Positions 1 through 62,429 of a DNA stretch of 64,000 nt are shown in pieces. The stretch lies in the NCBI RefSeq assembly GCF_964204645.1, contig NC_134029.1, forward strand, positions 7,218,850 to 7,282,849, read 5' to 3'. Every line of letters begins with the position of its first letter. Within the stretch, counting starts at the first letter, position 1. The notes below the pieces were generated by a model. The model searched no databases and had not been told where the DNA came from. It saw only the letters and a list, made by a program, of their open reading frames with translations. This stretch comes from Tubulanus polymorphus (lineage: Eukaryota > Animalia > Nemertea). The position numbers and the translations under genes were made by a program.

Positions 1-2697
1 CTGCTAATTACACGTTGGGATTATTTTGATTATTTTCAACGGATAAAACCTGATAATGCAGGATGAAAATTAAAAGATTGGAAAAAGGGCTTTTATTCTA
101 CCTACTTGTGGCAGTTTCATTAACGAATGACGTACTGGTATTCGAGTTAAATTGATTGAAATGACGTAGGCTACTGGTCTTTCGAGTTAAGAATAATACT
201 GATTCAAATGACTTTTTTGAATCTGCCTTCACAAATATAGAAGCGTATGCCCACTAAGTTCAGACGTTCTGACGCCATCCGTAGTATTGTTTATATCTCG
301 AGTGTTTTTTTATTTTGTTTCTTTTCCAATATGATTTTGCAAAATGCCAATATATACACGCAGCAATACATTGTTTTCATTAGTTCGACTTCGAGATCAG
401 TTTCAAGAAGAAAATACCACAATAGATACCGCCGAAGCAATTATGCAATAGATCACTTGATGAATTGCCCGTCAATGTCGCCAGGACAACAAGATACATA
501 TATACAAATCGGCTAGGGGGAAATAATCAACATTTTGTTTGGGTGCACATGCGCTGAATTATTATTTCGTTTTTCATATATCAACGAACGGCTTAGTTTT
601 ATCGGGGCGGGGGGTGGCAGCGCTCGACCTCCCTGATTTTATTATCTAGTCGGTGAATTCACAATGAACGGATCGTAGAATATCTGATTATTAAAATCCG
701 TTAGTTCTGCAAAGTATCAGCACGGGAGTATTATGGGCCAAGTAACATGCTAGCCGAATATGGGTTCGAATCTAAGGCTTGAATGCGAGGTTAATGTCAT
801 CGGAAGGACTAGCGATTCACTATTGATTCAAATATGATACGAGTAGCCATGCAATTCATAGGCTTTCAATCATTTATTAATGAAATAATCGAAATATGAC
901 TAAACGTGCGCGATTGGTTTTCAGTGAAATGATGGATATATTGACCACTTTCTGTTTACGTGATATATTAAAGTGTCGTGTCTGGGAAATGCTGGGTAGT
1001 TTGCCTATACGATCAATCAGTAACGTTTTCAGTCATATTTGCAGACTCTTGGCTGAAGTGTTTTCTTTTATGGTTTATACCATATATGCATTCTATGATT
1101 AGAAAGAATGTCCATAATTAGACAAAAATGAAAGATCTGATGACGAAAAGTGAGGATTTGACTCAAGGAGAAATGGTATTCTCTATGTTAGAAATAAGTC
1201 TGATGGCATAAGCCATCAATAAGCCTACGTTAGTAGGCCACAGGACCCCAAACATAGTACCTAGAATGAACAACGGTTTCCCAGTAAAGTTGCCATACTT
1301 CCAAAATTAGGAAAGATGACGAAAACCGTTATCATGAAGTATGTAATCCGTGTATACTAAAAAGACAAATTGATCATGAAATAGTTCCCAGAAACTATTA
1401 TGCCTTGAGTGAAAGTACCAAACATGGAGGATTCCCTACATCATTTAGCTCTAGAGTACTAAATGTACTTGTACACCTGTATTGGAATACCCATCCTTTC
1501 TCAAGGTCAAGATCAAGGTTTGATTATTTCAACAGATTGGTTAAGTATGTGAGCGCAATTGTGGTAATAGGAATATTTATGTTCATCATTGTTATCTTCA
1601 TCATCTTCATGGACTGATGGTTGAAATTTCAAAAGATGAGTCAAAAGCAAAAATGTATAGTTTAAGTTTTCAATGGTGGAAAATACTATGACCGTTCTCC
1701 TCCTACTGAAAGTAAACTTTCACTTCTAACACGGCAAATGATGGTCATGGTATACCTTTTACTGCGCTAAAAGGTCTCCATGTCAATCATAACCCATCGA
1801 AAGAGTACGAAGAGAAATGCATAAAGTACGGGAACAGGCTAAAATCGTTTTCCTTTTTCTTTTTGTCGACCGTAATCTCTATACATATCCCATTAGCAAT
1901 GGACATTGAGAGTGGCGGGAAATGGAGTGGCAGGAAACAGCAGTGGCAACAGTGGAAAGTGTGTCAGAATTTAACCAGCTTTTCTATCGCACATTTATCG
2001 AATATCGTTCATCTTTTAGACGTGATTTCAGTCGGAACAAACAATATACAACGTACCTAGGACCACCTCTCATTAAGAGATTGTTTATATGAATGGCAGA
2101 AAAATGAACAAATATTCTCCATTCTTACCAAATTCATTTTAGCTGAAGGTATGAAATTACAGCTGAAGGTATGATACATGTCTTAACTATTCTGCTACAC
2201 AGAAGAAGCAAATATGGGGAAATGATGCAAACGGGGATGGAAAACAGCCAAATCTTTCTAGCTCAATTTCTAGCGTTTTTTTCCCTCCGTATTATATACA
2301 ATATTTGATCCCATGTTCCAACGCTTTTCGAATTCGGTACCCTTACGATTGCCTGGTAACCAGGCATCGTATGCACGGATAAGTGGAAAAGTTCGGCCCT
2401 CAAGCGTGCAGGGTAAGCCTACAGGTTATCATATGTAGATTTCAAACCATTACTTTGTGTAAGTTTGGTAACAGGTTGAGGATCTAACTACAGCCCTAGT
2501 CTACACGATCAGCATTAAAATTCTCCACCGATCTTAATCGGCAGAAGAATCATTCAAGCAAATGTAAAAAAAAAACTGGTTTTCAACATTCTTGCAATGA
2601 ATAATTCAAAACCAAAACGAAAATGAATCTAAGTAAGAAGTAACACGTGTTTGATGATAGACTGACTACAAACAGTTATAGATCAGGCCGAACATAC

Positions 2698-3202
2698 CTA
2701 TCGTGGACACTACCGTTACAGAAAACATAAGTGATCCGGCCCATGACCACTTATTGGAAATTCCTCCCGGCTCACCCAGAAGTGAGCAATTTACGTCCAG
2801 GTCAAGGGCCACGACATTGTGACGAAATCGTTGCAGAACTTTTACCATCGACACTTTCGTATCGTATTCGTCGTTTCCTTGTTGAGTGATGTCGTACAGT
2901 CGGTTGGTCGTGTCATTTTCCTGTATGACATATTTATCATATTTGTTAAAACATTCGCTTTTTTCGTTCGTCTTTTCGAGATGCTCGAATATGAAGCCTC
3001 CCATCACCGAATACAGACACACCATCAGAAACAAACCCACGTGCGAGAACAGAAACTTGAGAAACTTCTTGCAAACTCCGATGCATTTTTTGCGTTTTTG
3101 TTCTTTGCCAGTGTCAGTCACGGCCACGTCGGGCGGTGGCATCGTTGGCGGCGGTTGTTTCTCCATTCTATCCAGATTTCTATTGTGAACGCTGTTGGAC
3201 AT
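2698..3202 (-). CDS. K2P (TWIK/TWK-family) potassium channel variable exon A: N-terminus, M1, cap, P1 pore helix (partial CDS)
   Basis: ATG at 3202 (MSNSVHNR...). M1 FLFSHVGLFLMVCLYSVMGGFIFEHLE; pore helix WSWAGSLMFSVTVVSTIG. Ends ACG ATA G|GTATGT, a phase-1 donor in the filter Gly codon. Confidence 0.9.
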
Positions 3203-5135
3203 TCCGTCGTGTATCCGATGTAAGTGACCAGAAAATCTCGTCAAAACGATGAAAAATCGTAGAAAGTTACGAAGACATCAGCGGCGGCCGGGCTTCGCCA
3301 TTCAGTGCACATAATCTTATCCTTCAACGCTCCGATCTCGAACACGTGCTAACTTCTTAGCATCGTTCTGACTATTTATCTTAATCTAGAACATTTACAT
3401 ATAATCTTTGATTTGTCAGCTTAGTCAACGCGACTACCAACTAGCATATCATAATCGGGATTCGTGATGAATTAGAATTATCTTGAATGATGCTTATTCT
3501 CGACTTCACCGATAGCTATTAAGTTCACGTCAAAGAGTTGATCACGACTTAAAACCGATAGCTATAAATGTTTAAATTACATCGTTCTGGAAATATCGCT
3601 CTAATATAGCCGACCGGTTTGAAGCTATCAATTTTTCTGGTTCCACGCAGAACACGTTCGTAAGAGAGGGTTTCTATGACGACATACGATGCCACGCCGA
3701 TCGAACAACGCATGCGCTTCCGTCCGATGCAGCGACGGCGGTCCACGTCCATATGCGACAGTCAGCGTTGTAGCATAGCGACGACGTTTCAAACGAGGAA
3801 GAAGATATGAATTATTGTGGTTTCCCACAAAACATTTCAGAATCTTGCACTAAACCACCTTTGTCAATTCGCGAATGTTTTTTTTATTACCATCGCTATC
3901 AAGGGCGGCTATTTTTCTGGTGGCCAACTTATGGAGGGTAATGTTTAACGTCATAGGGGCAACCCAGCAAAGCGAGCGCAGCCAAAGTACAAAGCTCAGA
4001 AAGATGGTTCTAGGGGCGTTCTTCCTCCCGCAGGAAATTTAAATTTTGAGTCTCCTGAGGCGCCTTTCTAGGCATTCTAAAACATTTTTGAAAACAATGA
4101 TTCACGAATCGTCGGATATGTATAAAGAATCAGCATAAATTCAAGCCAAAATAATACGGCCATATTTTCTTTCAACATATTTGATAGCACCTCAGAAACA
4201 TTAGGGTGGACCAGACCCCTTTGGTCGTCCCTTGGATATTCATTTATAGAAGAAATTTATTGCAAATTTTGATATCTTTCAGCAGCATCAATATAATTGC
4301 AATTGCGGCGGGGGGTAATAAAGACTTTATGTCTAAACCTGAAAGCAATTTACTAATCATGATTTTTTTCTAGATTGCTATGATGATTGTGATTTGGTGA
4401 TCGAGACTGAAGAAATTTTCGCAGACAACCATTTAGATCGCCGCGTTTTACGCCGTGAGACTATAGCCTTATCCTAGTGCCGGTTCTCTAGGTACACACT
4501 GAAGGAAATAAAAGCTAAAACTTGTTCAAGGTTGCAACGAATAACTCTTTCTCTTTTTTCATTCGCTTGGCAAACAATTCCAAGTTCATCATTCATTTTA
4601 CGCCAAAGAATCTGAATAAGAATGTAAGGATGAAAAAAAAATAAAACAAAATGTATCGTGGAGAAATTATCAATTTGTGTTCAATTGAAGCTCACGTCAT
4701 CGATTCGATGTTAGGCAACGGATCGTAAAGGAAAACGGACTGAGATGTTGCAAGAACACATCCGCCATCTATGAAAATATCTCAATCGGTGCAGTAATCG
4801 TGCCAAAACTCTCGTGTTCTTTTACAACCATTAATTAAAAATGTAAGATCAGCTTCATGCAACGAAATCACCAGCTATCAATTTCATCCGGCTCACGTTA
4901 GAATAATTATACGGACATCACTTAAAAATGTTTGGGACCGTTCTAGTCGCTGGTTAGGCGAGATACGTAATGAATAGAACTATGTACTAACCGGCTCTCC
5001 GAATCAGTACGAAACTTATTGTAAGGGAATATTACATTTACCTTTGCAGGTTTTATCAATTTATTTGTGAAAAAGATGATCAGATATAAAAGGTCTATAG
5101 AAATATAAGAAGACCCATCGTCAGTGAATTCTTAC

Positions 5136-5667
5136 CAATTGTACTAATCACTGTTACAGCAAACAGTATGGATCCAGTTAGCGACCATTTATAAGGTACG
5201 CCTCCAATTTCACCGATTTGCGTACAGTTTACATCCCAGTCAAGAGCGTATACGTTATCGCGAAACTTTTCTAGAAGTAATGACATCGATGCCTTGGTGT
5301 CTTCTTCTCCCAAACCTTGTGTAGCGATCTCGTAGAAGTGATTGGTAGTGATATTCTCCAAATCACGGTATTTGTAATAGATAATGAAACAGGCACTTTT
5401 TTCGTTCGGTTTTTCCAGATGCTGGAATAGAAACCCGCCCGACGTCGCGTAGACTATCACAATCACAAACAACCCGAGGTGTGAAGACATCACTTTACAA
5501 GTTTTCTTAGCGCAAATTATGATCTTGCGTTTTCTATCATTTGGTCGTCCGTCTAAAGGTTCCTCGTCGCCACAGCGATCGACTACGACGTTTGATCTCA
5601 TCCTTGTCGGTGGTACAGGGCCGGTCATCGGCGGCGGTTTATGCAATTGTTTGTCCCCTTCGTCCAT
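5136..5667 (-). CDS. K2P potassium channel variable exon B (partial CDS)
   Basis: ATG at 5667 (MDEGDKQ...). M1 SHLGLFVIVIVYATSGGFLFQHLE; WSLTGSILFAVTVISTIG. Ends ACA ATT G|GTAAGA, same phase-1 donor. Confidence 0.9.
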
Positions 5668-7480
5668 TTTATCGATTAAACCACACAACTTATTATCGAA
5701 TATATACGACTGTTACCTTAACGATATTTTTTCGGATTAAATATCTAATTTCCAATGAAAATAATCAACGTGATATCCAAGAAGTGGCCTCTCCATCGAG
5801 TGTCGATATTACATTTATCCATGATCCAATTCGTCACTGGTTAGTTACAGTCGCAATCGCTAAATTATTGAAAACGGTCAACAAAAACCGTGGTGCAACT
5901 ACTCGAGCTAAAACCAAATACTAGAATAACCCTTGAAAAACATACGCCGCCTACTGATTGAATCATTGCATGTCAAACGCTCTAATTGAGTGTTGTTTTA
6001 AGCATATATGTATATGCATACATTCGGGATGTGTTACGATGGATACCATCAGTTATATGACACTTGGGACCAGAGGAAACTACTCAATGTTGCTTCACTC
6101 ACGTTTTGCTAATTTCGAGCTCATGAAATATTTATTTCCTTCGAAATCGTAATTGTTTTTAATGGATAGGAATGCGCAAATCATTCGTCTACTCGCTGGC
6201 GATCCGCCCAATGTTCGGTCGAGAGAGTGAAGTGAAGGCCTAGTTCGAATAAATTACTTATCATTGTCATAGACATAGAAATATTGCGATAACCATTTGG
6301 TTCTCATCATTTTTCGATTTCTATGAAAACGATAATAGATTCCAAACCAGGGCGAGTTAGACGACTATTTGCGAAAGTGAAACCGAATGTCAATTAGTCG
6401 GAACTATAGTCCGTATTTGCTCCGATCACTAGTCGACTAATAACGAAATCTGCGTAGGCATTGCATTAGGGGAACTGCATACGATGCGTGTCGTGCGCCA
6501 CCCGTTCCTCTAAGGCACACGAGCTGAAAAATACGTAGGCAAAGTTTTTTCGATATTAGGATACAATTATCATGCTTTTTGGATCCTCTTTCATTAGGGA
6601 AGCGTCCCTTTCCACGGGAAAGATGTGCCCTTAGTGAGCGAACCCCCTGAAATTTTCAAAATGCCCTTCATAGAGTCCGCCAAAAAAATTCTGGTCAAGA
6701 TTTTTCGAAATTTGGATACATTTTTGGATCTAACCTTTTTCAATAAGAAACTGACTCTTTTCACGGTGAAAATGCGTCCTCTTTCTTGGAATAGAACTGC
6801 CCCTCAAAAGACCCATTATCGCTTTTGTTATCTGTTATCTGAAAGCCCTAGAAAACCTGGTAGAAATCTGTTTAGGTGTTGAAAGTAGTTTAGGAGCCTT
6901 AGGCTTTCTGTGAAAGAAAAAAGAAAACCTTAATTACCATGCAATAATGTTGACTAACTTGGCAAAAACTAGTCCCCCTAAATCCGCCCCTAGTTGATTG
7001 ATACTCAAAAGCTGATGATATTGGCTATATTTTCTTTTATAAGCATATCAAACACAACAATCGTTGATTCATAACACGAATCTAACTTTCTATATGATAT
7101 GCAAAATTCACTTGTGTGCGAGGCTTGCATTGATTAAAAAGAACTTTAAGGTGATTTTTTGGCATTACGTCAATTTATTTAAATTCCTATCGAGTTAAAC
7201 GGAAGACTACGTTGAAATGATGAAAGAAGCAGAAAAGAAATGATAATTTGTTTTTATCCGAGTTGGTCGCGTTCATCTTCGGCAAAGTTTTACTTCTTAC
7301 TTAGAATATTTACTGCAATTTCTATAAACGATTTACTTGGTATGTAGAGTATATATGTGTACATGCAAAAATTCTTGAACGATTGAAATTATTTCATCTC
7401 TAAGTGAAGTAATATCCCAATTCAGAAACTTTTTTACTGACAGAGAAAGGTATCGAGTTTTTTTAAAGAAAATAACCTAC

Positions 7481-8045
7481 CAACAGTTGACGTGACGGTA
7501 ACTGCAAAAAGCAAAGAGCCAGGAATCGACCATAAGTATGGATCTCCACCAGGCAGCCCAAGCAGATCGCAATCTAAGCCCCAATAATCCAAAGCATATA
7601 CATCGCTCCTAAATCGATCGGCAATCCGATGCAATGACACGAAAATATCCTTTTCATCCAGTCCTGAGGTAGTTATTTCCCAAATAGCTTTTATGGTACG
7701 ATTTTCTAGAGCGAAATACTTGGCTGTGACGTCATAACATTCCCATTTCTCGTTCGGCTGTTCTAATCTGGCGAAGATGTAGGCCCCAGCGATTGTATAA
7801 GCTATAACGAGTGCGATTACGATGACATATTTCATAAAAACTTTGAACGCTTCTTTCAGCGTCTTTTTAGCTTCTTCTTTTTTGTCCGATGTCGGCGTAC
7901 TTTCATTCGTATCTGCGGGTGTTATGTCTGGTGTTGAAACTCTTCTTGTGGGTGGTTTCGGCGGTCGCGTAGGTATAATCGACAACTGATCCTGTGACGA
8001 CGAGTATTCTGAGCAATAAACCCAATTTTCGTCCCTCTGATGCAT
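7481..8045 (-). CDS. K2P potassium channel variable exon C (partial CDS)
   Basis: ATG at 8045 (MHQRDENW...). M1 YVIVIALVIAYTIAGAYIFARLE; WSIPGSLLFAVTVTSTVG. Ends ACT GTT G|GTAGGT, same phase-1 donor. Confidence 0.9.
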
Positions 8046-9599
8046 TTTGTATCCCTACGTAAGTTCCTTTTTGGATATTATCATTCGCAGTCAGAGAAAA
8101 TTGTTTCAGAAAGGACAACTTCCCAAATATTCCAGATTTTGTAACTTTATGCATGCAAATGACAAAAATAACTATCCCTATCGCCCCTCTTAGCACTCTT
8201 AACGCACGGCACTATGACCTCTCTTGGCTCTGTCCAGTGCTATCCTGAGGAAACGTTTCATGTCTGTAATGGTGTTGCAACTAATGGCCACAAACGCGCA
8301 ATTGAAGCACACATAAAACAATTTTTCCTGATAATTGAATATGAAGAAACATCTATATTCATGCGAAAAAGGTACTTCAAATTTGTTTGCCGTCGATTCG
8401 CCATGGCAAACCCCCCTGAACAGTCATCTAATATTCAGACGAATTGCGCCGGTACACATTCTGTTTTAAAAAATTAATTATTTCAACCTATAATGAATGA
8501 CTATGATGAGCCGTTAGTTATTGGAAAAGTAGCACTTTCGATATCGCCTATTCAATAAATACCCAGTTCCGCCGAACATAGTGACGACAATTTGGCGTTT
8601 GCTGTTAATTTCTACCATACGTACACCCTCTCAAAACAGTTCGCGCAACAAGCAGATTGATATTTGAGACTAACAGCAATGGACGTCCATCCAATATATG
8701 AACATGTGTACGTACGTCAAATCAGTTACCGTTTAATTCATACATTCACCGGATTTCTGCTCTCTTCAAAAATGATAATTTATCTAAATTTATTTATAAG
8801 TAAAAGGAACTAAATATGTTTTGAAATCATTTCGGGGTCATTGAGTTTTTGAATGGGAATTTTGATGATGAAAACTTATTATCAATCCTTTTGCAACACC
8901 ACTATTTGTTGCATTTTAAATTTTCGTGATGTGGGTTTCTGAAATAAAGACGATTTTTCCTCTAGTAGCTTTATATACTAACAAAGAAGGTTAGAATTTA
9001 GACGCTTAAGGACACATTTACACCGAAAGAACCTATACATGGAGTCTCAGAAAATGTGTTACCCGAGCTTTATGAAATGGTACACGGTAATAATGCCAGA
9101 GGTAAAAATGCCATAGGTTATATATTTCTTGTTTTAGGTTCGATTCCATTCTCATATCCATTCAGAAACACGGTAGTGTTCAGATGCATGGTTAATCATT
9201 GTATTTCAATGATACGTCCTCGTGCAAACATCCAGGTATACCAACTTAACCCCCCCCCCCAAAAAAAAAAATAATTAATCTCAATAGTTATGGTAGTTAA
9301 TAAATAATCAGTCTTAAAGCTTCGGTTACACATTTCTGAGATGCTTTGTATATAAATATCTATTAAATTGAATATTACTATCGGATATAGTATACAAAAC
9401 GATATCAATGACATAAGTTTATAGGGAAACATAATACATGGTAAAAGTAAAAGAATACCAATAAATTCATTCATTATTCATATCTAAAGGACACGGTTAA
9501 CCAATCGATTTTCTCGCTAGAAAAGTAACACGTTTGAATTACTTTTATACATCATCTGAATTTCTCTATTCGCTGGGTATTTACGTACTTCGAACTCAC

Positions 9600-10113
9600 C
9601 TATTGTTGTAGTAACAGTGATAGAGAACATAAGCGCTCCCGACATTGACCAACCAAGCGGCTTCGAACCCGGCTCGCCGAGGGTCGAACAGTTGCCGTCC
9701 CAATCAAGAGCGACCGTGTTCGATTTGAATCGATCGAGAATTTTCATGATAGATCTTTTGATTTCCTCTTCGTCGTTTCCGAATGTGGTCACATCGTACA
9801 GGCGATTGGCCGTATCGTTTTCTTGGTATACATATTTCAAATATTTGTCGTGACATTCGCTTAACTCGTTGTGCAACTCGAGGTGGCTAAACACGAATGC
9901 GCCCATCACCGCATACAGGCAGACGACAAAAAGCATACCGACATGTTTGAAACAGACTTTACAGAATTCTTTCGCTCGAACTTTGAGTCGGATCACCGAA
10001 AAAACGTTGTCGGAATTATCTTCCTCGATTATATCGCCGTTGCCGCCGGCGGTTCGAGGTTGGGTCATCCGCCGATCCATGTTCACGTCAACGCTTGACA
10101 TCATAATAGACAT
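9600..10113 (-). CDS. K2P potassium channel variable exon D (partial CDS)
   Basis: ATG at 10113 (MSIMMSSV...). M1 KHVGMLFVVCLYAVMGAFVFSHLE; WSMSGALMFSITVTTTIG. Ends ACA ATA G|GTGAGT, same phase-1 donor. Confidence 0.9.
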
Positions 10114-12041
10114 GATGATTCTCTTTCGCCTTGACGATATAGAAGTAAGTTCCTGGTGTACCCGATTTCAGCGGCTACTTTTCAAAACATAAGCCTACAC
10201 AATATGTATTCCTTAACCAGGATGAAAAACAAATATTATCGGAGTATATCGTCACTGCATGACGCCTTCAGTATGATTTTTGTTAATGCGTTTATTTCCG
10301 CTATCAAATGAAATTGAACACCAATAAACGCCGAGAAAACTAGAAGTCGCTCTTCAGAAAATGAAAACCCCGCTAAAGTACTATTAGATTTGCATAACGG
10401 AGTAAATCGTATATATTCTCTATATTCCTCGTATATACAGACTATGCAACCCTAGTTGGTTAAAACGATCAGCAAACTTTCGATGAAACCGTAGTTGTCA
10501 ATCTGGCCTTACGAAATGGTATTCGAATGTTAAACGCTCTTTGAGAATATAGCCGTTGAACAAGTTACATTGCGGGTAATGAAACATTTTTAGCGACCGA
10601 ACAATATGTTTCAAGTGTCATTGATTTCCTTTGATACATTATTGGCCACCGATAATTAATAATTCGTTATCCGCGATGTCATAAATTCTTCGCGTTCGTT
10701 GAAATTTCTCTAGCAATTTGAAACGTACTCTATAGGCCTTGACCCATCTCGCTAACCACTCCAACCACCGATTACGGCAAAGAAATTAATAATCTAGAGG
10801 GAATTGTAATCTCTATCTAACTAAGATAATTGTAGAGAGAAATCATTTTGAAATCGTATCGGCATATTTTCAATTTGCTTCGAGCGCATGGTACTTGACA
10901 GATTTATTGCGACAGCGCGATCACATATGTGCTCTATTCGCTCTCAACGTAGTGCAATCTATCTCTTGGTTCAATGAGCTGGTTTTAGTACTCGTGCTTC
11001 TTCAAATGGGGATGGCGAAGGATGATACTTGGTTTCGTTATTCCCTCAATACTCGCCCACCAAAATGCTAGTAATGTTAGGCTCTTGAAAGTTCGCCGGA
11101 GAAGGGTGATGATGACACTCTAGGGTATGATCGCTTGCCAGGGTTTGATTGCCTCCTTCCATAGCTCACGCCAATACTTGCTGTAACTAACCAAGCGGAC
11201 TCAATCATGCGAGAAGCGTAGGAACAAAACTATGGCAGGCCTGTTGGAGCTGTTCCGACTCTGGCATGCGAATCGTTGGCTGGAAGGAATGGATTGGGGA
11301 CTCTAGGTAACACTGGTATTACGGAGCAATCCTTATGGCGCTCCACCGAGCACTATTTCCGTAACTAACCAGGGTAGCCTTCGAATCTGTCAAATACTGG
11401 TACATCATTTAGGATTTTATTAGCGAAAATTGTCTTATTTGCTAGCATTGAATGGTAAAAAAGCTTTTAGTTCATCTTCGATTTGTCTATTTGGTTCCAA
11501 CCGGGTCGTTTATATTGTGCTTTTCATTTCCATCAAGAAGTTACGACTCAAAAACATTGCCCTGTCAGATTAAAACTAAAGTACAATTCAATCAAATTTC
11601 ATCAGGGCTAAAAGTAGACTTCTATCGAACTTTTTACATTTGAGTTCCAGTTTCACAAAAATATTAAGCTTACGGTGGTTCAATCACAATTTGTTAAATG
11701 ATTTTATTTAGGACCATCTAATGAGTGAGTTCTTGTCATAATAGGCCTACTTACTACTCGTTAATGTTGCCCGGCATAATTTTACAAGAATTAATTTCAT
11801 TCGGATTATTTTTTTTGCAGAGAGTGACGGCATTAAAGGATTATATCTATCTATTCCATAAAGTAAGAATTACACCACAGTTTTGTGGATAGTGGATGTT
11901 TTAGTAGTAGGCTGCAGTATCTGTGATATTTATTCTGCTGAAATCGAGGCGAAATAAACCCAGCCACACGGATCATATTTGTTTTACCGGTGATTGAAAG
12001 CAATGATGTGTTTTTCATGATGTACTGGATAATACAACAGC

Positions 12042-38049: not shown

Positions 38050-41000
38050 TTACGTCCTTTTCGAACGCTTTTTCGCCGATGCCGATCCACGCCAATTCGG
38101 ATGGGCTCGTTCGATATGTTTTTTCAAGCCGATTTCCGTGTCGAATTCTTTGCGACACCGACGACATTCGAGTTCGTGTTGCATTTCATTACTCGAGTCA
38201 CTGTCGACGACAGCGGCGACAGCGCCGTTGCGCACGCGATCGACCTCGCCGCTCGGCAACACAACAATGTGATCGTCAAATTGCTTTCGCGCGCGTCGTC
38301 GACGCGAGTATTTCTCGTAGTCACGAACTTTATGCACGATCAACAAGTGATTGCGCAACGTGCGCTCGACGACGAAACTGACTCCGCACTCGGGACAATC
38401 AATCGACTCTTCCTCGGCCCGATGTTCGGCGACGTGGTCCTCATACGCGCCTTTGTTTCGGCTCGTAAACGAACAGCTAGAACATTGATACAACTCACCA
38501 TCATCATCATCATCATCATCGTCGTCATCATCATCGTCTGAACTACTCTCCTCACTTTCCTCCTCTTCGGCATCATTCTCGACGGATTTCGAACGTTTTA
38601 TAGCAATTTCAGGCAGAAGATGAGAAGATAGTTTACGTTTATTGTTATTATCATAACGTCGAGTGGACTCAACTTTTGCCACTTCTGGCACGGCAACGTC
38701 GGATTTACTTTCAGCCAATTGAGTTTTCACCACTTCCGATGCGGATTTAGGTTCAGCCGATGAAGTAGCTGAAGAAGGGACCACGACTTCGTCGGGAAAT
38801 CGAGAATAGTCGATTTTAGCGCGCGGAATCTTGTGGAAATTGATGATGTGCTTTTCGAGATAGTCTCGGCGATGGAACGCCTTATAAACTTGACAATCGC
38901 GACAAATATAGCACACGTATTTGAATAATGAACTCGTATGCGATTTCTTACTGTGGATTAGCATGAGTTCCTTCGTGTCGAACACCATCGAGCACCGCGG
39001 ACAAATATGTTTCTCGGGGACAGGGGGCTCGGTGGGCGTCTTTTCACTAGTGTCGAACATATCGTTCAATTCATTTTCGACCGTTCGTCCTTCGTTACTA
39101 TTTTCCACCTCTAACGCTTCGAAAACCGACGACTCATTCGACGACGTCGATTTCGGCAAGATCGCCACGTTCTTCTTACTATGCGCATTTTTGACGTGTT
39201 TTTCGAGGTCGCTTTTCGACACGAACGTATCGTTGCACGTTTTGCAGAAATGGATATCGAGCTCTCGCATCTGTTGGTTGGACTTGGCTTTCCAGCACGT
39301 GCGCGAATGTTCTTTTTGACTGTTCTTATCGGGGAATATGCGCGAGCACAGCAAACAGATGAAATGGCCTTGTTTTTCGTGGACTTTACGATGTTTGTAC
39401 AGACTATCTCGGTAGAAATATTTATTGAAACAAATCGGACATTCATACGGCGCGTACAAGGACTTTAATGACTCTGAAGTCGTACACGGCTTCGACGAGG
39501 AATTCCCGCTTGATCTTTTGTTCCCTTTTCCCGGCGAAGAGCCGACTGTCGCTTTTTCTATGACGCTGTTACACACAATGCCGCTACAAACTTTGATATG
39601 CGCCAGGAACTCGGCATTGTTGTGACAAGTGAAATTACACTTATCGCATCGGGTATAATGACATTTATGAACTTTAGCCAGATGATTGACGAGATCGACT
39701 TTCTTTTTGGCCAATTCCGAGCACAAGAAACACTGATACCGATACTTGCGGTATTTCATTTCGTCGGCGTAATGTTTCTGAATGTGTCCATTGAGCACGT
39801 TCGCCTTGCGAAACACGGTATTGCACATCGGGCATTTCACAATCCACGTGTGACCCTCTTCCGGGTTCAGATCGCCGTGCGTCGTCGAGAAATGCCCGAA
39901 GAAACTCTCGCGCGATTTAAACGCCATCGGACATCGGTGACACTTGAAATAGCCGTCGGCGTGTTTCGAGCGCATGTGTTTATTCGCGGCCGACTGCTCC
40001 TCGAACAGGCCGTCGCAAATGTTGCACATGTAACGAACTGTACGCGATAAATGCAAGCACTTCACTTTGATGTGATCGGCAAAGCCTTCCTTCGATATGA
40101 TGTTCAGACCGCATTCGGGACACACCTGCGGCAGTATCCGCTGATGTATACGTGTGTGAGCTTTCAAACTACACGCGCTCGGCAACGGTAACTGACAGTG
40201 AGCGCAAACGTCGTCGAGGCTCATTTTTCCGCTGCCCTGGAAATGATCGGCCAGTTCGTCGGACGTTTTAAACCTCATCGGACACTCGGGACAAAATATG
40301 TCGTCGGAAATTATATTCAAACGGTCGGTATTTTCGGCCGGTTGCGAATCGGAATTCTTCGTTTTCGACGATTCGAGAAGTTGTTTCTCTTTCGGCGCCA
40401 GCAACAAAACGTTCACCTTCAGATCGTCGTATTTCGGTGTGATACCCGTTTCGGTGTGCTCGCGCACGTGCTGAATGTGCGCGCATTTATTGTAGAAAGT
40501 TAAATTCGTGCTGCACACGTCGCAGTAGTAGCTGATTTCGACGCTCGCGCGATCCATATGCTCTTTTAGACTCGATTCGAACAGGAATGTATCGTTGCAC
40601 GACTTGCACTCGTGAACCGACGTCGGCGCGTGTATTTTATCCGCTGCAGCGATCGTCGGAACGTATTTCGGAAGCGGATTCTCGTGGCTCAGCATCGTCA
40701 CGACGGTCACTCCCCCCGAAACGAACGAGCTGTCTAATTTCTTCTTTTTCGCGTTGGTAACGCCTTTCGGAGCTTTGGTCGTCGTCGTAGGGGTGGGATT
40801 CTGCGGAGATGTAGTCGGTGGTTCCTGGTTAGATTTCGGTGGCGAATTTCCGTCCGTTTGCGGCGATACTGAGTTCAAACTAGGCGATAGTCGAACTTCA
40901 CCGGCTGTTCCACAAACGGATTTCGATACTGGCATTACGTCCGGTGTAGAAGACGTGCTCCGGCGACTGTCCGAAGATGGTCGTCTGCCGTGTCCTCCTC

Positions 41001-41928
41001 GCGGTGACATATTTCGTCCGTCATCGTACATGTCCATATGCATCGAACCGGGAATCACTGGAACCATACCGTTATTCATCGGTATCAAGTCCAGATTATG
41101 CGGGCCGAACATTCCGTTATTTACGCACATCGGACTGTTATTTCTCATATGAATCATACCCGCGGCGTGCGCGTTGTTTTGATGATTGAAGAAACCGTGA
41201 AATTGCGGCGGCGCGGCAGGTGGAAACTGCAACGGAACGCGAGACGGCGGAGGCATCATCGTCAACGGCGGACCGCGCGCTCTCGACATCGGTATCTGAT
41301 ACGTTTGGAAACATTCATTCGGCGGAATGGGAGGCGGGTGATCCCTTAACCGCGGGATAAAATGATTCATGAATCCGCGCGCGGGAAACGGATTGCGTGG
41401 AATATTCATTTGACCCGGTAATGGAACATGTGGCTGCGGGAAATGTTGCACGTGACAGTTTTCGGGTAACGGCAGGACTCCGAACGGAGGTGTGTGCTGA
41501 CGGTGATTAGATAACGGTAACTGATTGTTAGGTTGTCGTCCGGTAAATTGAGGAACTTTAAGAATCGGCGAATTGTTCGCCATGAGATTCTGTTTGATCG
41601 CGCGCGATCGCCTACGTTTTGGTTTTTGCGGCTCCGCGCGGACCAATCGCTCAAGTTTTTCCAGACTGTTCAAGTGCACGGAGGAATCGCCGGACTGATT
41701 CTGGTCATCCGGATGACTACAGAAAGTCGGTATATTCAACGGCACGTGATCTCCGGGTGGCGGCCTGTTCAGTTTGTTCGCAACCAAATCTTCGGAACGG
41801 CGGCCCTGATGAATATCCGGTTTCAAGTTGAAGTTTTCAATGTTGTTATTGTCGGATTTTTCTTTCGTGACGGTCGGTATGTCCGAAATATCATACGCCG
41901 CCATCAGATCCTGAAAACAGTCATCCAT
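38050..41928 (-). CDS. ZNF532/ZNF592/ZNF687-family multi-C2H2 zinc-finger protein, paralog A (single coding exon)
   Basis: Long ORF. Likely start MDDCFQDLMAAYDI resembles the family N-terminal FDDLLAAFDI motif and lies just after a ttctcttttcag acceptor (exon starts 41935). Family-type fingers HECKSCNDTFLFESSL..H, FYNKCA...HVREH, SACSLKAHTRIH, CPECGVSF...LRNHLLIVHKVR; poly-Asp tract. Confidence 0.9.
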   Translation of the reverse strand: MDDCFQDLMAAYDISDIPTVTKEKSDNNNIENFNLKPDIHQGRRSEDLVANKLNRPPPGDHVPLNIPTFCSHPDDQNQSGDSSVHLNSLEKLERLVRAEPQKPKRRRSRAIKQNLMANNSPILKVPQFTGRQPNNQLPLSNHRQHTPPFGVLPLPENCHVQHFPQPHVPLPGQMNIPRNPFPARGFMNHFIPRLRDHPPPIPPNECFQTYQIPMSRARGPPLTMMPPPSRVPLQFPPAAPPQFHGFFNHQNNAHAAGMIHMRNNSPMCVNNGMFGPHNLDLIPMNNGMVPVIPGSMHMDMYDDGRNMSPRGGHGRRPSSDSRRSTSSTPDVMPVSKSVCGTAGEVRLSPSLNSVSPQTDGNSPPKSNQEPPTTSPQNPTPTTTTKAPKGVTNAKKKKLDSSFVSGGVTVVTMLSHENPLPKYVPTIAAADKIHAPTSVHECKSCNDTFLFESSLKEHMDRASVEISYYCDVCSTNLTFYNKCAHIQHVREHTETGITPKYDDLKVNVLLLAPKEKQLLESSKTKNSDSQPAENTDRLNIISDDIFCPECPMRFKTSDELADHFQGSGKMSLDDVCAHCQLPLPSACSLKAHTRIHQRILPQVCPECGLNIISKEGFADHIKVKCLHLSRTVRYMCNICDGLFEEQSAANKHMRSKHADGYFKCHRCPMAFKSRESFFGHFSTTHGDLNPEEGHTWIVKCPMCNTVFRKANVLNGHIQKHYADEMKYRKYRYQCFLCSELAKKKVDLVNHLAKVHKCHYTRCDKCNFTCHNNAEFLAHIKVCSGIVCNSVIEKATVGSSPGKGNKRSSGNSSSKPCTTSESLKSLYAPYECPICFNKYFYRDSLYKHRKVHEKQGHFICLLCSRIFPDKNSQKEHSRTCWKAKSNQQMRELDIHFCKTCNDTFVSKSDLEKHVKNAHSKKNVAILPKSTSSNESSVFEALEVENSNEGRTVENELNDMFDTSEKTPTEPPVPEKHICPRCSMVFDTKELMLIHSKKSHTSSLFKYVCYICRDCQVYKAFHRRDYLEKHIINFHKIPRAKIDYSRFPDEVVVPSSATSSAEPKSASEVVKTQLAESKSDVAVPEVAKVESTRRYDNNNKRKLSSHLLPEIAIKRSKSVENDAEEEESEESSSDDDDDDDDDDDDDGELYQCSSCSFTSRNKGAYEDHVAEHRAEEESIDCPECGVSFVVERTLRNHLLIVHKVRDYEKYSRRRRARKQFDDHIVVLPSGEVDRVRNGAVAAVVDSDSSNEMQHELECRRCRKEFDTEIGLKKHIERAHPNWRGSASAKKRSKRT
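38497..38537 (-). repeat. (GAT/GAC)n coding repeat giving a poly-Asp tract in paralog A
   Basis: catcatcatc... on the + strand; DDDDDDDDDDDDD in the ORF. Confidence 0.85.
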
Positions 41929-44900
41929 CGTTATTCTGAAAAGAGAACGCATTGATAATATACATTACTATCAGTCAGTACTTGCATAGAACTGAGTTTG
42001 CATAGAACTAAGTTAGTGTAGAACTGAGTTCTATGGTACTTGTTACTGTAGACTCTGCCTTACTGGTGAACTAAAAAAAAAAAATCTACAGTAAACCTTG
42101 CCTATCTTAAGACAAACTGGGTCCAGTTAAACCAGAGTTACGGATCAGAAAATACATCAGAAAATCATAAAATGATTCTTTTTTGTGGTCCGAGTTATTC
42201 AGAAATCATAGTTGGCCATGTCGGAGGTTTATTTTACTCAATTCGATGACTTTTACAAAATTGATATGGAGAGACTTACAACAGGGTATGCGGTCGACTC
42301 TGTTAACTATGGTCAAAATGCAACACTGAGAAAGATGGAGTTTACTGTAGTTTATATGGATCTTTATCGTTCGCGTTTCGAACATTCGTCAACAGCAGAC
42401 TCAGCCAATCACCGAACAAAATGTCATCAGTCTGATTGCGTTACGACGCGAGACATCATCAATCAAATTATAACCTCCGCTCACCGATAGAAAAATAACG
42501 TCGATCAAACTTCGACTGAAGTTGCTCGAAACGAGATAAAACCGGATACCCCAGATGTACTGAGGAACTCGGCGGTAAGGTTGGATGAGTAGTGGTAAGG
42601 TTGGATGAGTAGTGACGTGAGCCACGCATAACCGACGTATTAGTCAGTTCAGATTTAGCTCCAGGGAAATATAATCATGTTTCCATGGCAACAGTTCTTC
42701 ATCACATCGACGACGACAGTACGCGATGATCGGTGGGCACTGCTGAAATTTTGATGATTCGACATCACAAGAGTTTCACCCAGGCAACCGAAAATCATTC
42801 CCGGCCAATGCATACTCGATGAGATTCGAAATACTCTCATTTCTTCCGAACGACAGCATTCTCGGTCGATGCCGTGTATATGACTAACACTTTTAAGTTG
42901 ATTGGTAATGCTTATCAGAATTCCCAGGTTCTGAAATGGATTCACCCGAATCAAACATTCAACGACTAGGTTACCCGTAAATGGTTACCCGTACGGAAAA
43001 TAATTGAAACTTTATCGAAGATAAATACGCGCAAAAAACTTTCATAATTTCTACGCACATAACATGACAATCTTAACGGTCTACCACATCGCGAAGGTGT
43101 GACATACTGCATAGTACTTACCGGAACTTACCGGCTTACGGGTTGAAGTTTTTAGTTTCGTCGCAACAGTCCGGCGAAAATTCACCGAACTTAATGCGTA
43201 AACGTACGCGACAACAGTAGATTGGAATTAAATGTATATATAGGAAATACTGCGGTGTACTGTACAACATTCAACACACAGTAAATTCTCTCACGGTTCA
43301 TAAAGTCAATGTACGCCATAAACGCATTGGTTTGTGGTTATTTGTCTGGTGGATATCCACTGTTGTTCACTATACCGAACACAATAATCACCAGGCTTAT
43401 GAATCATCGCGATAGACTGACAGTCCATTATATGCTGGAAGTACAGCGCCTGTTTACAATAGTACTTCCATTATGTCGATAGGGGCGGTAGGTAGAATAA
43501 TAACCTACACTACGCGATAACAATAGCAATAGCAATAACGACTGCTTAAACTTCGACTCGAATACTTTGTATGGAAAAAAGAGGCTCACCAAGATGGAGT
43601 ATCACGGGCCCTAAGTCCAGCATCCTAGATCTATAAACGACTTTTATCTTTATCCTTAAGGTGTAGATTTCGGAAGTTCTACGTTTAATAATCACCCGTG
43701 GTTTCCGCGGGCTTTCCACTAGTTTCAAAAATAATCCTGAACTTGGCACCAGTATCTCGTGGCGTCTGCCTGGTTCATAATAGTGAATATAACTCCTAGG
43801 TTTAACTAAGGTGAGTATCGATTCAGCCCAATGTATAAATAAGTTAAACCTGACGGACGAAAGTAGCTGACCAGTTCGAAAAAGAACTTCATGCTTAAGG
43901 CCGGTGTCATCTTCATCCTCGGGGTTAACATTTTACAAAATCATCACTAGATATGTCCAACCACAGGTTCAACTTAACGATCAGTCAACCAGACAAGTAG
44001 GCTAGGCCTGACAAAAATTCACTGAAAACCTTTTTGACACGGCATACAGTTATCACTATTGATGGACATCGTGATAGTCCCGTTGAAAGAAAGTTTGACT
44101 GAAAATATCCGAGTTGAGCAAAAATCTGGGGCAACTGGATCCGGGTCAGAATATTATTTCAAGGAAAGAATGGGACGACAAAATATTTTCAGATTGTCCA
44201 GCGAAGCGATTATTTGAGCTGACCAGATCCAGGGCTATGGCAGAGTCTACTGTATAACATAATTAATGAAAGTTTAGGTTTTTTAAAATTAGTTTTAGGT
44301 TAGGTGGTACTTTCCAGTATGATGTACCATGATCCAACAACTGGAATAACTGGAATACTTTGGCACAAAGCAGGCAGTAACAGATGTCCAACAGTAACTG
44401 TTTACTGAATAAATATTATACCAATTAGCTAGAAACCTATAGAATGAACATTCAATTGGGCCAGACTCAAATATCACCCACCGTTCATCATCGGAGCACA
44501 AAAGCCATTGGACTAGAGAATATTCGAAAAACCGGAAATCTTTTCACCGATGTTCAATCAAACGGTAGATACCGTGTCAGGCTTAACCATACAACCATAC
44601 AACAGATTCATAAAATTCTTTTATATCATTATCTTCTTACATATGCCACCGCGCCTGTTCCGTACTCGAACATAATTGGATAGCCGTTTAAAAGTAGGTC
44701 ACATTCTGTGCCACTGGTCCACATTTTCGGTTTTTAACGTACACAAAAAAAGCACAGAATTTTGCGCGGCGATGATAAAAAGAAAATTCAATGAAAAGTC
44801 ATCGTCGAAGTCAAAGCAGTCGCGTAGTACACACATATACACACAATATGCACAGAAAGTTTTCGATTTTTGCTATCATACATACCTGCTACCCGCTTAT

Positions 44901-52400: not shown

Positions 52401-52506
52401 TCCTTCAAACTGCTGTATTGAATCCTTGTCTTCATCGAAGTTTCTGAATTTACAAGAAAGTGCATAGTGGATTCAGTGAAAGATATTTAAGTTGAGATTC
52501 TAAACA

Positions 52507-55500
52507 ATGTCGCAATACAAGCAGCTGAAGCCAAAGTCTACCGTTACGGGTCTATCTAAGAATTCTCAATTTCCTTTCGATGAATGTGACAGTAGTCGTC
52601 GTATCCATCACTTGACGAAGAATACCTCTGGAACCATCATTTTGAACAAACAACCTGAATTAGCAGCAAAACGAAACCGCTCGCTCTCTGCCGACTGCAC
52701 TGTGCCCGCTACTAAAATGACTAGTAGCGGAAATAAATCTCAACCATACAGAGCCATCCTGCCGACTCCAAATGTTGTGCGCCACATGCCAGCCGTTATT
52801 AAGACAATCACACCTGAAACAACAGATTCCAATGGAAAAACTATTTGGCAGCAAGGTTTTTTAAAGAAAGCCAACTGCATTAAAAGGTATAAGCCGCCAC
52901 TGGCGGTTGCATTTCAGTTACCTGATCAAACATTCTATCAATGCGAGGCATGTAACGATTCATTCATGTTCCATTCTAGTTATGCTAGTCATGTCGAAAG
53001 AAAAAGTGTAAATATCAATTTTGTATGCTCTCACTGTCCAATGGATAAGATGCAGCATAAATTTCCAAACAAGTGTGCATTATGGCTACACTTAATGGGC
53101 CATGTTGTCAGTCAGAAAACTGCTGCCAATGATATGATGTGGTTAGATTCTGTCAATATGAGTATGATTGCTCTAGAGTATGTTAGAGCTCCTTTTCTAG
53201 CTAAAGATGCTAAAGAAATTGATAAGTTTCTTAACATGGCAACTTCTACTAAAGACAGCCTACCCAAAGATTTCAGCAGTGCAGAAGCCATGACTAGGAG
53301 TGGGAACGTAGATTCTGCTGGGGATAACGGATCAGATGAAATTTCAATTCGGAATGAGAAAGCTTGTGACGGAAAGATTTTTCAAAAAAGTTTGGAGTCT
53401 AAATCTGATTCCATCTCGAACAATCATGTAGTACTGGGTGCAATAGATGGAGAACCATGCATAGATAATCGTAATGCATCGAATGCAAATATGATAACTT
53501 CAACTCAGCTACCTCCAAGCTCAACTACCAACAAGACTTTGTCAACATACACTGGCAATGATCAGCTTTTGAGTTGTAAGCTTCCTCAATGCGGTATCGT
53601 CGGTATTTCTTGGGATTGCCCGGAATGTTTGATTAGTATACCAACAAAAGAAGGCCTTGCCAAACATTTCAGCACTAAGGATGCAACTTACAAAGGAAAT
53701 TGTGATGTCTGTTACTTGATGATGCCGAACAAATGTTCATTCGCTGCCCACAAACGCACTCATAAATTCACGCCTCCATATGTTTGTCCCGAATGCGGAA
53801 AGCAGTTACTTTCTTTAAGTCTTTTCAAGCGCCATTTAACAGCGAAATGTTTTCATAATTGTCGCTTGATGTGGCTATCTTGTCCAAAATGTCCCAGTTC
53901 CGGGTTTTCGAATACTTTTTTGCTGAAAACGCATTTTCAAATGCACCACCGAGACCTGTTTTATCGTTGTACACAATGCCCAGTTGCGTTTACAACCTGG
54001 GATGGCATCAGCAAACATTCAATTGATGTGCACAAGGTTTCAGCTAATCTCGGGTTCATTTCAAAACAGGTTTACCAATGTCATTTCTGTAAGATATGCT
54101 TTGGAGACAATGTTATGTTCATCGAACATTTAGAAAATCACATAGATGCCACTTTCAAATATAGCATACCAAAGTATAAATGTCAGATATGTTGTGAACT
54201 GTTTTTGTTGCCAAGCGATCTTGTTCAGCATTTAATGGCTCATAACAACCGTCGACATCAGGTAGTCCCGTTTATGTGCGATTACTGTGGACACCCGTGC
54301 GATAATCTTGCAAGCGAAATAAACCATGAAACCCAGAACCATCAGACATATATTCGAAATTTCTTTCTGAACGTTCAAAAACGCGGTCTCATTAAGGTTA
54401 ATGATCCGCTGGAAAATAAAAAAAATGGTGCAAATGTTACTAGCGAAGTGAACATGTCTGCTGATGTAACTGGTGGCAATGGAAATAAGTCAGCTCTATC
54501 TACCAAAATAAGTTCTTCTGTTCCAAAGAATGATAATAATCCATTTTCAGATCTTTTGAATCCAGATGTGGTGATAAAACAAGAAGTGCCCGATTCCCAA
54601 TGTGATTGCGGTGGGCTTGACCGAACTGGACCAATTATATCTTCGGATGATAGAAATGAAGTGCTTAAAGCACTTGAGAAACAATTGAAGCAAGAAGTCG
54701 TTGAAGTTCGCGAAAAGATACGAAATATGCAACATGTTTGTAAATTTTGCGAGATGGGATTCGAAATTGAAGATGAGTTAATTTCCCACCGTTGTCCAAA
54801 TGATCACCATGAAATTTCTACAGATGCATTTGAAGATCTACCCGCACGTAATGCTGATGTAACCACTACAGTGCCAATAGCAGATGAACTGACCAGTGGT
54901 CTAAGAGCTGCTTATATGCTATTACACTATCATGTTTGTAAAACTTGCAAAAAGTCATTCAACTGTAAACAAGACTTAGAAGAACATTTGACTGAAGCGC
55001 ATGGCTTTTCTATTGGATGTCAGTTCTCTTGTCTTCTTTGTGGCCTTACATATGCTAGTATTGAAGATCTGAATCGGCACGATAAAAATGTCCATCAACG
55101 TCAAAAAGAGCACAGCTTTTATTGTACACTATGCAAAGAGCAGAATATTGCTAAAAGTTACAAGCACAAAGTTTACCTGATTAATCACTTGAATAAGGTT
55201 CATAAGGTGAATCGAAATAAGGAACTGTGGGCTGAAATGAAGAAACAAGTCGAAGAAATGGAGTTACAAGTCTATGGCAAATGTGTCAGACTTGAAGAAG
55301 ATGGGTCAAGTCAGTCAGAAGAATCAGATGCGAATACTTCCAAAAGGCCATCGGTGTCCATTCCACAGGAAGAAGAAACTCCTGCTTTGAAGCGACTGCG
55401 ACTTGAGGGAGGAAATAGTTATCATTGTGCCAAATGTTCATACTCGTCGGAGGACCACAACCAGTTTTTAGATCATATAAAAATGCACAAAATTGAGGAA

Positions 55501-55854
55501 GATTCTTTCCAGTGCAGTGAATGCGGTGTTTGCTTCTCCGTGATCCCGTCATTAAAACGCCATCTCATCATTGTACACAAAGTTCGAAATATATCCAGAT
55601 ATGTGGGTTCTCTAGAGTCTAAACAGAAAGCGAACTTGTATGACTCGACCTTGTATTTCAAGCTCGATTCCTCGAAGAAAAAAACTGAAGCCTCCCCTAA
55701 ACGGACACAGGATGAATTCACTGTACTTCAGAATGGTTGGCTCGAGTGCCAAGTTTGTTATAAGGCCTTTAACGACATGCCATTACTTAAGTCGCATATG
55801 CGAACGCATGGTATGGCCTTTATTCAGTCCAAGCGTATTCAAGCCCTTCCGTGA
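52507..55854 (+). CDS. ZNF532/ZNF592/ZNF687-family multi-C2H2 zinc-finger protein, paralog B (single coding exon)
   Basis: 1115-aa ORF after a ttttcag acceptor at about 52394. Motifs YQCEACNDSFMFHSSY..H, PNKCALWLHL, NKCSFAAHKRTH, CSECGVCF...LKRHLIIVHKVR and the family C-terminus LKSHMRTHGMAFI. Confidence 0.9.
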   Translation: MSQYKQLKPKSTVTGLSKNSQFPFDECDSSRRIHHLTKNTSGTIILNKQPELAAKRNRSLSADCTVPATKMTSSGNKSQPYRAILPTPNVVRHMPAVIKTITPETTDSNGKTIWQQGFLKKANCIKRYKPPLAVAFQLPDQTFYQCEACNDSFMFHSSYASHVERKSVNINFVCSHCPMDKMQHKFPNKCALWLHLMGHVVSQKTAANDMMWLDSVNMSMIALEYVRAPFLAKDAKEIDKFLNMATSTKDSLPKDFSSAEAMTRSGNVDSAGDNGSDEISIRNEKACDGKIFQKSLESKSDSISNNHVVLGAIDGEPCIDNRNASNANMITSTQLPPSSTTNKTLSTYTGNDQLLSCKLPQCGIVGISWDCPECLISIPTKEGLAKHFSTKDATYKGNCDVCYLMMPNKCSFAAHKRTHKFTPPYVCPECGKQLLSLSLFKRHLTAKCFHNCRLMWLSCPKCPSSGFSNTFLLKTHFQMHHRDLFYRCTQCPVAFTTWDGISKHSIDVHKVSANLGFISKQVYQCHFCKICFGDNVMFIEHLENHIDATFKYSIPKYKCQICCELFLLPSDLVQHLMAHNNRRHQVVPFMCDYCGHPCDNLASEINHETQNHQTYIRNFFLNVQKRGLIKVNDPLENKKNGANVTSEVNMSADVTGGNGNKSALSTKISSSVPKNDNNPFSDLLNPDVVIKQEVPDSQCDCGGLDRTGPIISSDDRNEVLKALEKQLKQEVVEVREKIRNMQHVCKFCEMGFEIEDELISHRCPNDHHEISTDAFEDLPARNADVTTTVPIADELTSGLRAAYMLLHYHVCKTCKKSFNCKQDLEEHLTEAHGFSIGCQFSCLLCGLTYASIEDLNRHDKNVHQRQKEHSFYCTLCKEQNIAKSYKHKVYLINHLNKVHKVNRNKELWAEMKKQVEEMELQVYGKCVRLEEDGSSQSEESDANTSKRPSVSIPQEEETPALKRLRLEGGNSYHCAKCSYSSEDHNQFLDHIKMHKIEEDSFQCSECGVCFSVIPSLKRHLIIVHKVRNISRYVGSLESKQKANLYDSTLYFKLDSSKKKTEASPKRTQDEFTVLQNGWLECQVCYKAFNDMPLLKSHMRTHGMAFIQSKRIQALP

Positions 55855-58878: not shown

Positions 58879-62429
<3,551 letters not shown>

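Follow-up and report, generated by a model that had tools for sequence, protein, structure and literature searches.

Four homologous exons are encoded in tandem on the minus strand of a 64,000-nucleotide stretch of the Tubulanus polymorphus genome (NC_134029.1, positions 7,218,850 to 7,282,849; hereafter the window), each coding for the N-terminal tail (N-tail), first transmembrane helix (M1), extracellular cap and first pore helix (P1) of a two-pore-domain potassium (K2P) channel. They are probably the alternative first exons of one TWiK-7-like K2P gene, each with its own promoter and all joined to one shared set of downstream exons. The broader statement that four channels are built on one shared back half, with own promoters and a shared leader counted together, can be made with somewhat greater confidence. 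The four exons (V1 to V4) and the adjoining intron are as follows, a slash marking the splice site.

10113-9600, minus strand: V1, first exon of 514 nt (N-tail, M1, cap, P1 helix), ending in T-T-I-G/, donor G/GTGAGT.
8045-7481, minus strand: V2, first exon of 565 nt (N-tail, M1, cap, P1 helix), ending in S-T-V-G/, donor G/GTAGGT.
5667-5136, minus strand: V3, first exon of 532 nt (N-tail, M1, cap, P1 helix), ending in S-T-I-G/, donor G/GTAAGA.
3202-2698, minus strand: V4, first exon of 505 nt (N-tail, M1, cap, P1 helix), donor G/GTATGT.
1..2697, minus strand: predicted start of the intron toward the shared M2-M3-P2-M4 region, placed from XP_074650138.1.

Six-frame translation locates all four open reading frames where the original prediction, made from the letters of the window, had placed four paralogous minus-strand exons of 505-565 nt some 2.1-2.5 kb apart; the donor-to-donor distances from V1 to V4 are 2119, 2345 and 2438 nt. 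Every one of the exons begins with an ATG of its own and ends at the same point, the first base of the filter glycine followed by GT in phase 1, and the equivalent donor inside the first P1-filter glycine that had been predicted is thus seen in 4/4 exons. The layout is that of tandem homologous first exons on one strand, each with an ATG and a same-phase donor. A profile built from V1-V4 matches exactly four of the window's 4416 six-frame segments (next best E 1.1), and the same four are retrieved with a profile of 23 first exons from outside Tubulanus (next best E 1.6), the Pfam scores of the single exons lying under the cut-off. Pairwise amino-acid identity over 126 core codons is 42-60%, with V1 and V4 sharing 60% and V2, the most divergent exon, sharing 42-44% with V1, V3 and V4. 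V1-V3 align with V4 at the same cap Cys, Glu and Trp residues, and the flanks of the four exons hold no common sequence. High-copy dispersed repeats occur in the gaps (6258-6800, 9080-9120 and 11130-11175), with a short inverted repeat at 6258-6335.

The V4 exon is 100% identical to residues 1-169 (1-168 plus one base of Gly169) of XP_074650138.1, an annotated 396-aa complete TWiK-7-like channel of Tubulanus polymorphus that carries PF07885 and continues after the V4 part with GYGHIAPKTTWG. Two filter motifs (TxG[YF]G) are present in this one chain, so that V4 and the back half together have the two pores of a K2P channel. By sequence the protein matches 41 solved structures (best TASK-3, E 5e-28), and its predicted fold agrees with those of K2P structures (TM-score to TWIK-1 0.71 by target; mean predicted local distance difference test score, pLDDT, 77.9). 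The model helices derived from V4 span residues 32-107 (M1 into the first cap helix), 112-133 (second cap helix) and 154-166 (P1 helix), and a helical cap is therefore present between M1 and P1 (32-107 and 112-133; pLDDT mostly >85).

No downstream K2P exon was found in the 64 kb with residues 169-396 as query (tblastn and phmmer; best BLOSUM62 E 0.69), a PAM30 search of the window with the same residues returned poly-Asp matches only, and none of the four ag/GN TWY GGN motifs in the window continues as M2. This extends to the whole 64 kb the earlier observation that no continuing exon lies in the gaps or in the 2.7 kb to the window edge, and agrees with the conclusion drawn from it that these are not four complete genes, the back half being absent both between and beyond V1-V4 there. 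Among annotated proteins, no second close back half was found: no other protein exceeds 66% identity to residues 169-396 in the best 120 of 445 listed matches, where the only other named Tubulanus protein, a paralogue from a different contig, reaches 41%. One profile search (near length) missed V3's own record and is weak for absence, and the back-half search is relied on here. The annotation gives V3, on the same 24.9-Mb contig, as a separate read-through protein of 190 aa (5667-5098), and exact look-up of read-through forms returned no annotated product for V1 (four forms) or V2 (one form), one V4 form also being blank. The V1-V3 donors are likely joined to the shared exons, the V4 join being known from the public gene model only. 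The proposal of one locus with a shared remainder therefore holds for the annotated joining of V4 to a complete back half and for the one back half found, and gains from the same layout in two other animals (below), while the annotation of V3 as a short gene of its own does not conform to it.

The earlier note had also suggested looking for the array in related genomes. A scan of metagenome contigs yielded 48 loci, 18 of which hold both halves of the channel, and two of these 18 contain several first-exon modules. Four modules precede single M2, loop and M4 exons in L001/L040, which are one contig, and three modules precede single M2, loop and M4 exons in L004. The reading frame is open in every one of these modules, each ends at the same phase-1 donor, and the modules correspond one-to-one in order between L001/L040 (A) and L004 (B): A2-B1 (tree 100/99), A3-B2 (64%) and A4-B3 (80-84%). 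One shared constant region, with none between the variable exons, is seen directly in L040 and L004, where we infer the joins from sequence. The M2 exon of both is 34/35 identical to that of Capitella, suggesting that the two contigs are annelid.

Both of these loci also contain a tandem M3-P2 exon pair (L040:14503-15317 and L004:6111-6622), the two versions being ~67% identical within species. The first versions are 95% identical between L040 and L004, and a 68-nt intron separates the versions in L004. Three of the four M3-P2 exons measure 221 nt, and the alignment of the fourth extends over that length too, a size at which the frame would be broken if both or neither were used. The two versions are likely mutually exclusive, which would double the first-exon choices. 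The last module of L040 (10039-10825) is split by a phase-0 cap intron with similar ends (GAG/GTG ... CAG/GTG), while its L004 orthologue is unsplit, which is likely to reflect intron gain.

Further candidates are found among predicted proteins. The Littorina proteins P0029 and P0270, with consecutive accessions, have an identical back half and first exons differing at three residues, and one of these first-exon versions is also annotated as a 155-aa stand-alone model. Beyond this pair, no proteins combining a near-identical back half with a clearly different front occur among the 93 with a P1 junction. Exon arrays are observed in Tubulanus, L001/L040 and L004 only, with Littorina as a possible further case. 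In Solemya (P0283/P0012) and Nucella (P0280/P0034), a front-half-only model is sister to the complete gene of the same animal, that of Solemya lying on the same chromosome, making both candidates for further arrays. First exons on three short contigs named in one series with L004 (L005:4390-4779, L007:3513-3890 and L009:2460-2849) form their own clade (98/97) near Capitella and may represent a second array or whole-gene copies. P0172, a 302-aa predicted protein of a different K2P subfamily, contains two successive M1-cap-P1 stretches (1/284 proteins checked) and could have arisen when a gene caller fused two tandem first exons.

In a gene of this form, transcription would start just upstream of the chosen exon, whose donor would be spliced to a single acceptor completing the filter T-(I or V)-G/Y-G. 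The intervening copies, lacking strong acceptors, would leave with the intron, giving one first exon per transcript. The resulting subunits would differ in the cytosolic N-tail, M1, the two cap helices together with the glycosylation sites they carry, and the P1 helix, would have M2, M3, P2, M4 and the C-tail in common, and would all stay potassium-selective. Up to 10 dimer types could be formed, provided that the subunits are co-expressed. In K2P channels the cap forms an arch above the pore, most of the solved structures show M1 exchanged between the subunits, and block by ruthenium red is set by a cap-base residue, according to the sections available of a K2P structure review (PMC8436263). 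With the cap roofing the ion path and M1 swapped, exon choice would tune partner choice, outside access of blockers and protons, and trafficking, rather than ion selectivity.

The same four channels could also be produced by mutually exclusive splicing from a shared upstream leader or by trans-splicing, either of which is unlikely. The 28 kb upstream of V1 are free of open reading frames of at least 100 aa on the gene strand except for two or three short unexplained ones, so that a non-coding leader exon could lie there, and a TATA-like word is present only at V3. By a crude rule, however, the 500 nt before each of the four ATGs contain no pyrimidine-rich YAG acceptor, which fits first exons and allows intervening copies to go with the intron. 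Each exon moreover starts with a separate ATG and codes for an N-tail unrelated to the others, and the N-terminal duplicated exons of human genes come from alternative promoters in the portion available of a human survey (PMC8373072). For trans-splicing, nemertean spliced leaders have a single mention in the literature found.

Alternatively, V4 alone might encode the channel, with V1-V3 supplying M1-cap-P1 half subunits that damp the V4 current via the cap. We consider this quite unlikely, although V3 is annotated as a stand-alone protein with an AATAAA word downstream, N-only models are present in Solemya, Nucella and Littorina, and truncated TREK-1 forms are described as reducing full-length current (PMC12490864, in part). 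The donor has stayed at the same base in all four exons, and the P1 and filter residues are kept as well. The read-through tails (10-27 aa) have nothing in common, and no polyA-like word occurs within 600 nt of the V1 or V4 donor. Retention of the intron just after variable exons, often seen in sDscam RNA-seq as described in the available part of that study (PMC4835542), would yield such truncated models and could explain the stand-alone V3 model.

That V1-V3 are silent or decaying leftovers of tandem duplication, their back halves lost, is improbable. Compatible with it are the longer branches and fewer conserved residues of V1-V3 relative to V4, the missing annotation of V1 and V2 and the frequency of whole-gene pairs in the family. 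Yet three frames remain open and three donors intact at saturated synonymous divergence, no back-half trace is present in the gaps, and ordered orthologous arrays occur in two other species. Among the four exons, for which the original prediction had proposed a dN/dS estimate, pS (the proportion of synonymous differences) is 0.78-0.99, with third positions 26-42% identical, at the 42-60% amino-acid identity given above, in line with its argument that these exons are not decaying debris. Simulated neutral copies are stop-free in 18-20% of runs at 0.1 changes/site and in <1% at 0.5, and in fewer when indels are included. Between the window and an independent sequencing run (X1), none of the 34 listed differences falls in the V1-V3 cores (1137 of 6846 bases; P 0.002), nor do any of 25 when counted by clusters (P 0.011); two of the 34 are in N-tails, and for whole exons the P values are 0.011 and 0.062. 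Four contig pieces enter this test, the V4 piece being left out as it differs at one site only. Saturated synonymous sites, open frames and cores without listed differences together indicate that the variable exons are kept by selection. In X1 a 3-base insertion and one substitution (7940, 7984) occur in the V2 N-tail, a third-position change (10072) in the V1 N-tail and a 3-base deletion (3271) upstream of V4.

Several back halves further to the left, belonging to interleaved separate genes, or a misassembly are the least probable of all: although no single independent contig spans the four exons, one back half is found among the annotated proteins in the matches listed, the M2 and M4 exons are single in the other two arrays, and X1 tiles positions 1-12000 at even depth (~30x) with overlapping contigs. 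One X1 contig reaches 2.8 kb further left than the window. Misassembly, which the original prediction had named as grounds for refuting it, is thus countered by this tiling. Uncollapsed haplotypes are ruled out, the copies being only 42-60% identical and their flanks unrelated. Runs X2 and X3 cover introns as well as exons and read through the V4 donor. They contain two non-canonical back-joints (2879/2023 and 5878/2343), and their piece ends lie near proximity-ligation cut sites in only 8/26 cases against 4.3 at random (P ~0.05), too few to establish them as proximity-ligation data; neither the reads nor the back-joints were used as splice evidence. Run X4 has coverage only at the repeat near 9.1 kb and was likewise not used as evidence.

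Several observations weigh against one gene with four promoter-driven first exons. No join from a V exon to the constant region occurs in any sequencing run examined, and the public annotation shows one product, with V3 on its own and V1 and V2 apparently unannotated; an AATAAA lies 29 nt past the V3 read-through stop. The finding of a single back half covers annotated proteins only. V1, V2 and V3 keep 26, 25 and 29 of 34 family-conserved residues, compared with 31 in V4 and 30-33 in the other arrays, their branches are longer (0.44-1.16 against 0.15), and evolution is faster in V1 and V2 than in V4; this could reflect either the gain of new functions or a relaxation of constraint. Five more X1 differences lie in 9250-12000, outside the list of 34. 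Across the scan, 16/18 loci with both halves show one module (most <5 kb upstream, L035 10 kb), and molluscan and Capitella orthologues are often whole-gene pairs, so that arrays are not universal. The Littorina P0029/P0270 pair could be alleles.

In the tree, V1-V4 group with flatworm sequences among others (95/90), apart from the annelid-like arrays. A single clade of the Tubulanus and annelid-like array exons is rejected (approximately unbiased test, p-AU 0.0245; split A4 exon left out), which suggests that the arrays arose separately or have turned over since a shared origin, while V1-V4 as one clade are neither recovered nor rejected (p-AU 0.465). The origin trees rest on 135 columns, and the 71-row tree, from which P0090 and P0044 were left out, is quick and poorly resolved. 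There is about an even chance that protocadherin-like first-exon arrays, exchanging half the pore and the entire dimer-forming cap, arose repeatedly and independently within one lophotrochozoan K2P orthogroup. A single gene would then give a combinatorial set of leak channels, with four subunits and up to 10 dimers here; an annelid-like relative, in which the second pore exon alternates as well, would have at least eight subunits.

Elsewhere in the window, two long single-ORF (open reading frame) C2H2 zinc-finger genes with ZNF592-like fingers are encoded at 38053-41964 (minus strand) and 52504-55851 (plus strand) in divergent arrangement, with 23-30% identity to each other. Exons of a DCAF12-like WD40 gene are located at 60408-61649 (minus strand), the frame 61275-61649 matching solved DCAF12 (E 8e-17).

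Diversity among K2P channels comes from separate genes and their heterodimers. The original prediction knew of no described K2P locus with this organisation, and no K2P first-exon array was found in the full-text literature, subscription papers being mostly outside its scope. The locus would constitute a natural set of chimeras, with four fronts on one fixed back half, with which to probe the cap and the swapped M1, whose roles in partner choice, gating and blocker access are listed as open in the available sections of the K2P structure review (PMC8436263). It would also bring to a channel pore, on more than one occasion as it seems, the variable-first-exon design known from adhesion molecules and enzymes, and points to an annotation blind spot in which such exons are omitted or called short uncharacterised genes.

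The closest relatives are the lophotrochozoan TWiK-7/KCNK18-like orthologues of Capitella, Dimorphilus and molluscs, which belong to the same orthogroup, with an extended cap and two conserved Cys residues. Their first exon ends in the P1 filter as in V1-V4 but, unlike in Tubulanus, they are annotated as single genes or whole-gene pairs. Alternative 5' exons are described for other potassium-channel genes, including C. elegans twk-40a/b/c (PMC9049526), human TREK-1a-c (PMC12490864) and KCNAB1, a beta subunit gene among the three-copy 5' cases of the human duplicated-exon survey (PMC8373072). As far as the available parts of these reports go, the twk-40 and TREK-1 variants change the cytosolic N-tail only and KCNAB1 is an auxiliary subunit, the channel core being common in each, in contrast to V1-V4. 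Alternative pore or turret exons are described in invertebrate NALCN (exon 15a/b) and Cav3 (exon 12a/b), where exon duplication likewise gives lophotrochozoan channels interchangeable extracellular-loop and pore-helix sequences (PMC4436565, in part). Those are internal pairs that alter ion selectivity, whereas the four Tubulanus exons are first exons with M1, the whole cap and P1, and the potassium filter is kept. The arrangement most resembles the variable-first-exon clusters of the protocadherins, UGT1A, GCNT2 and the 5' cassettes of chelicerate sDscam, as these are described in the accessible portions of the literature (PMC4835542, PMC3325998, PMC1885805), with tandem homologous first exons before one constant region and lineage-specific expansion. 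It differs from them in that its promoters and splicing are predicted ones, in comprising four copies rather than dozens, and in that the variable part of the K2P array is half a pore, cut inside the selectivity filter.

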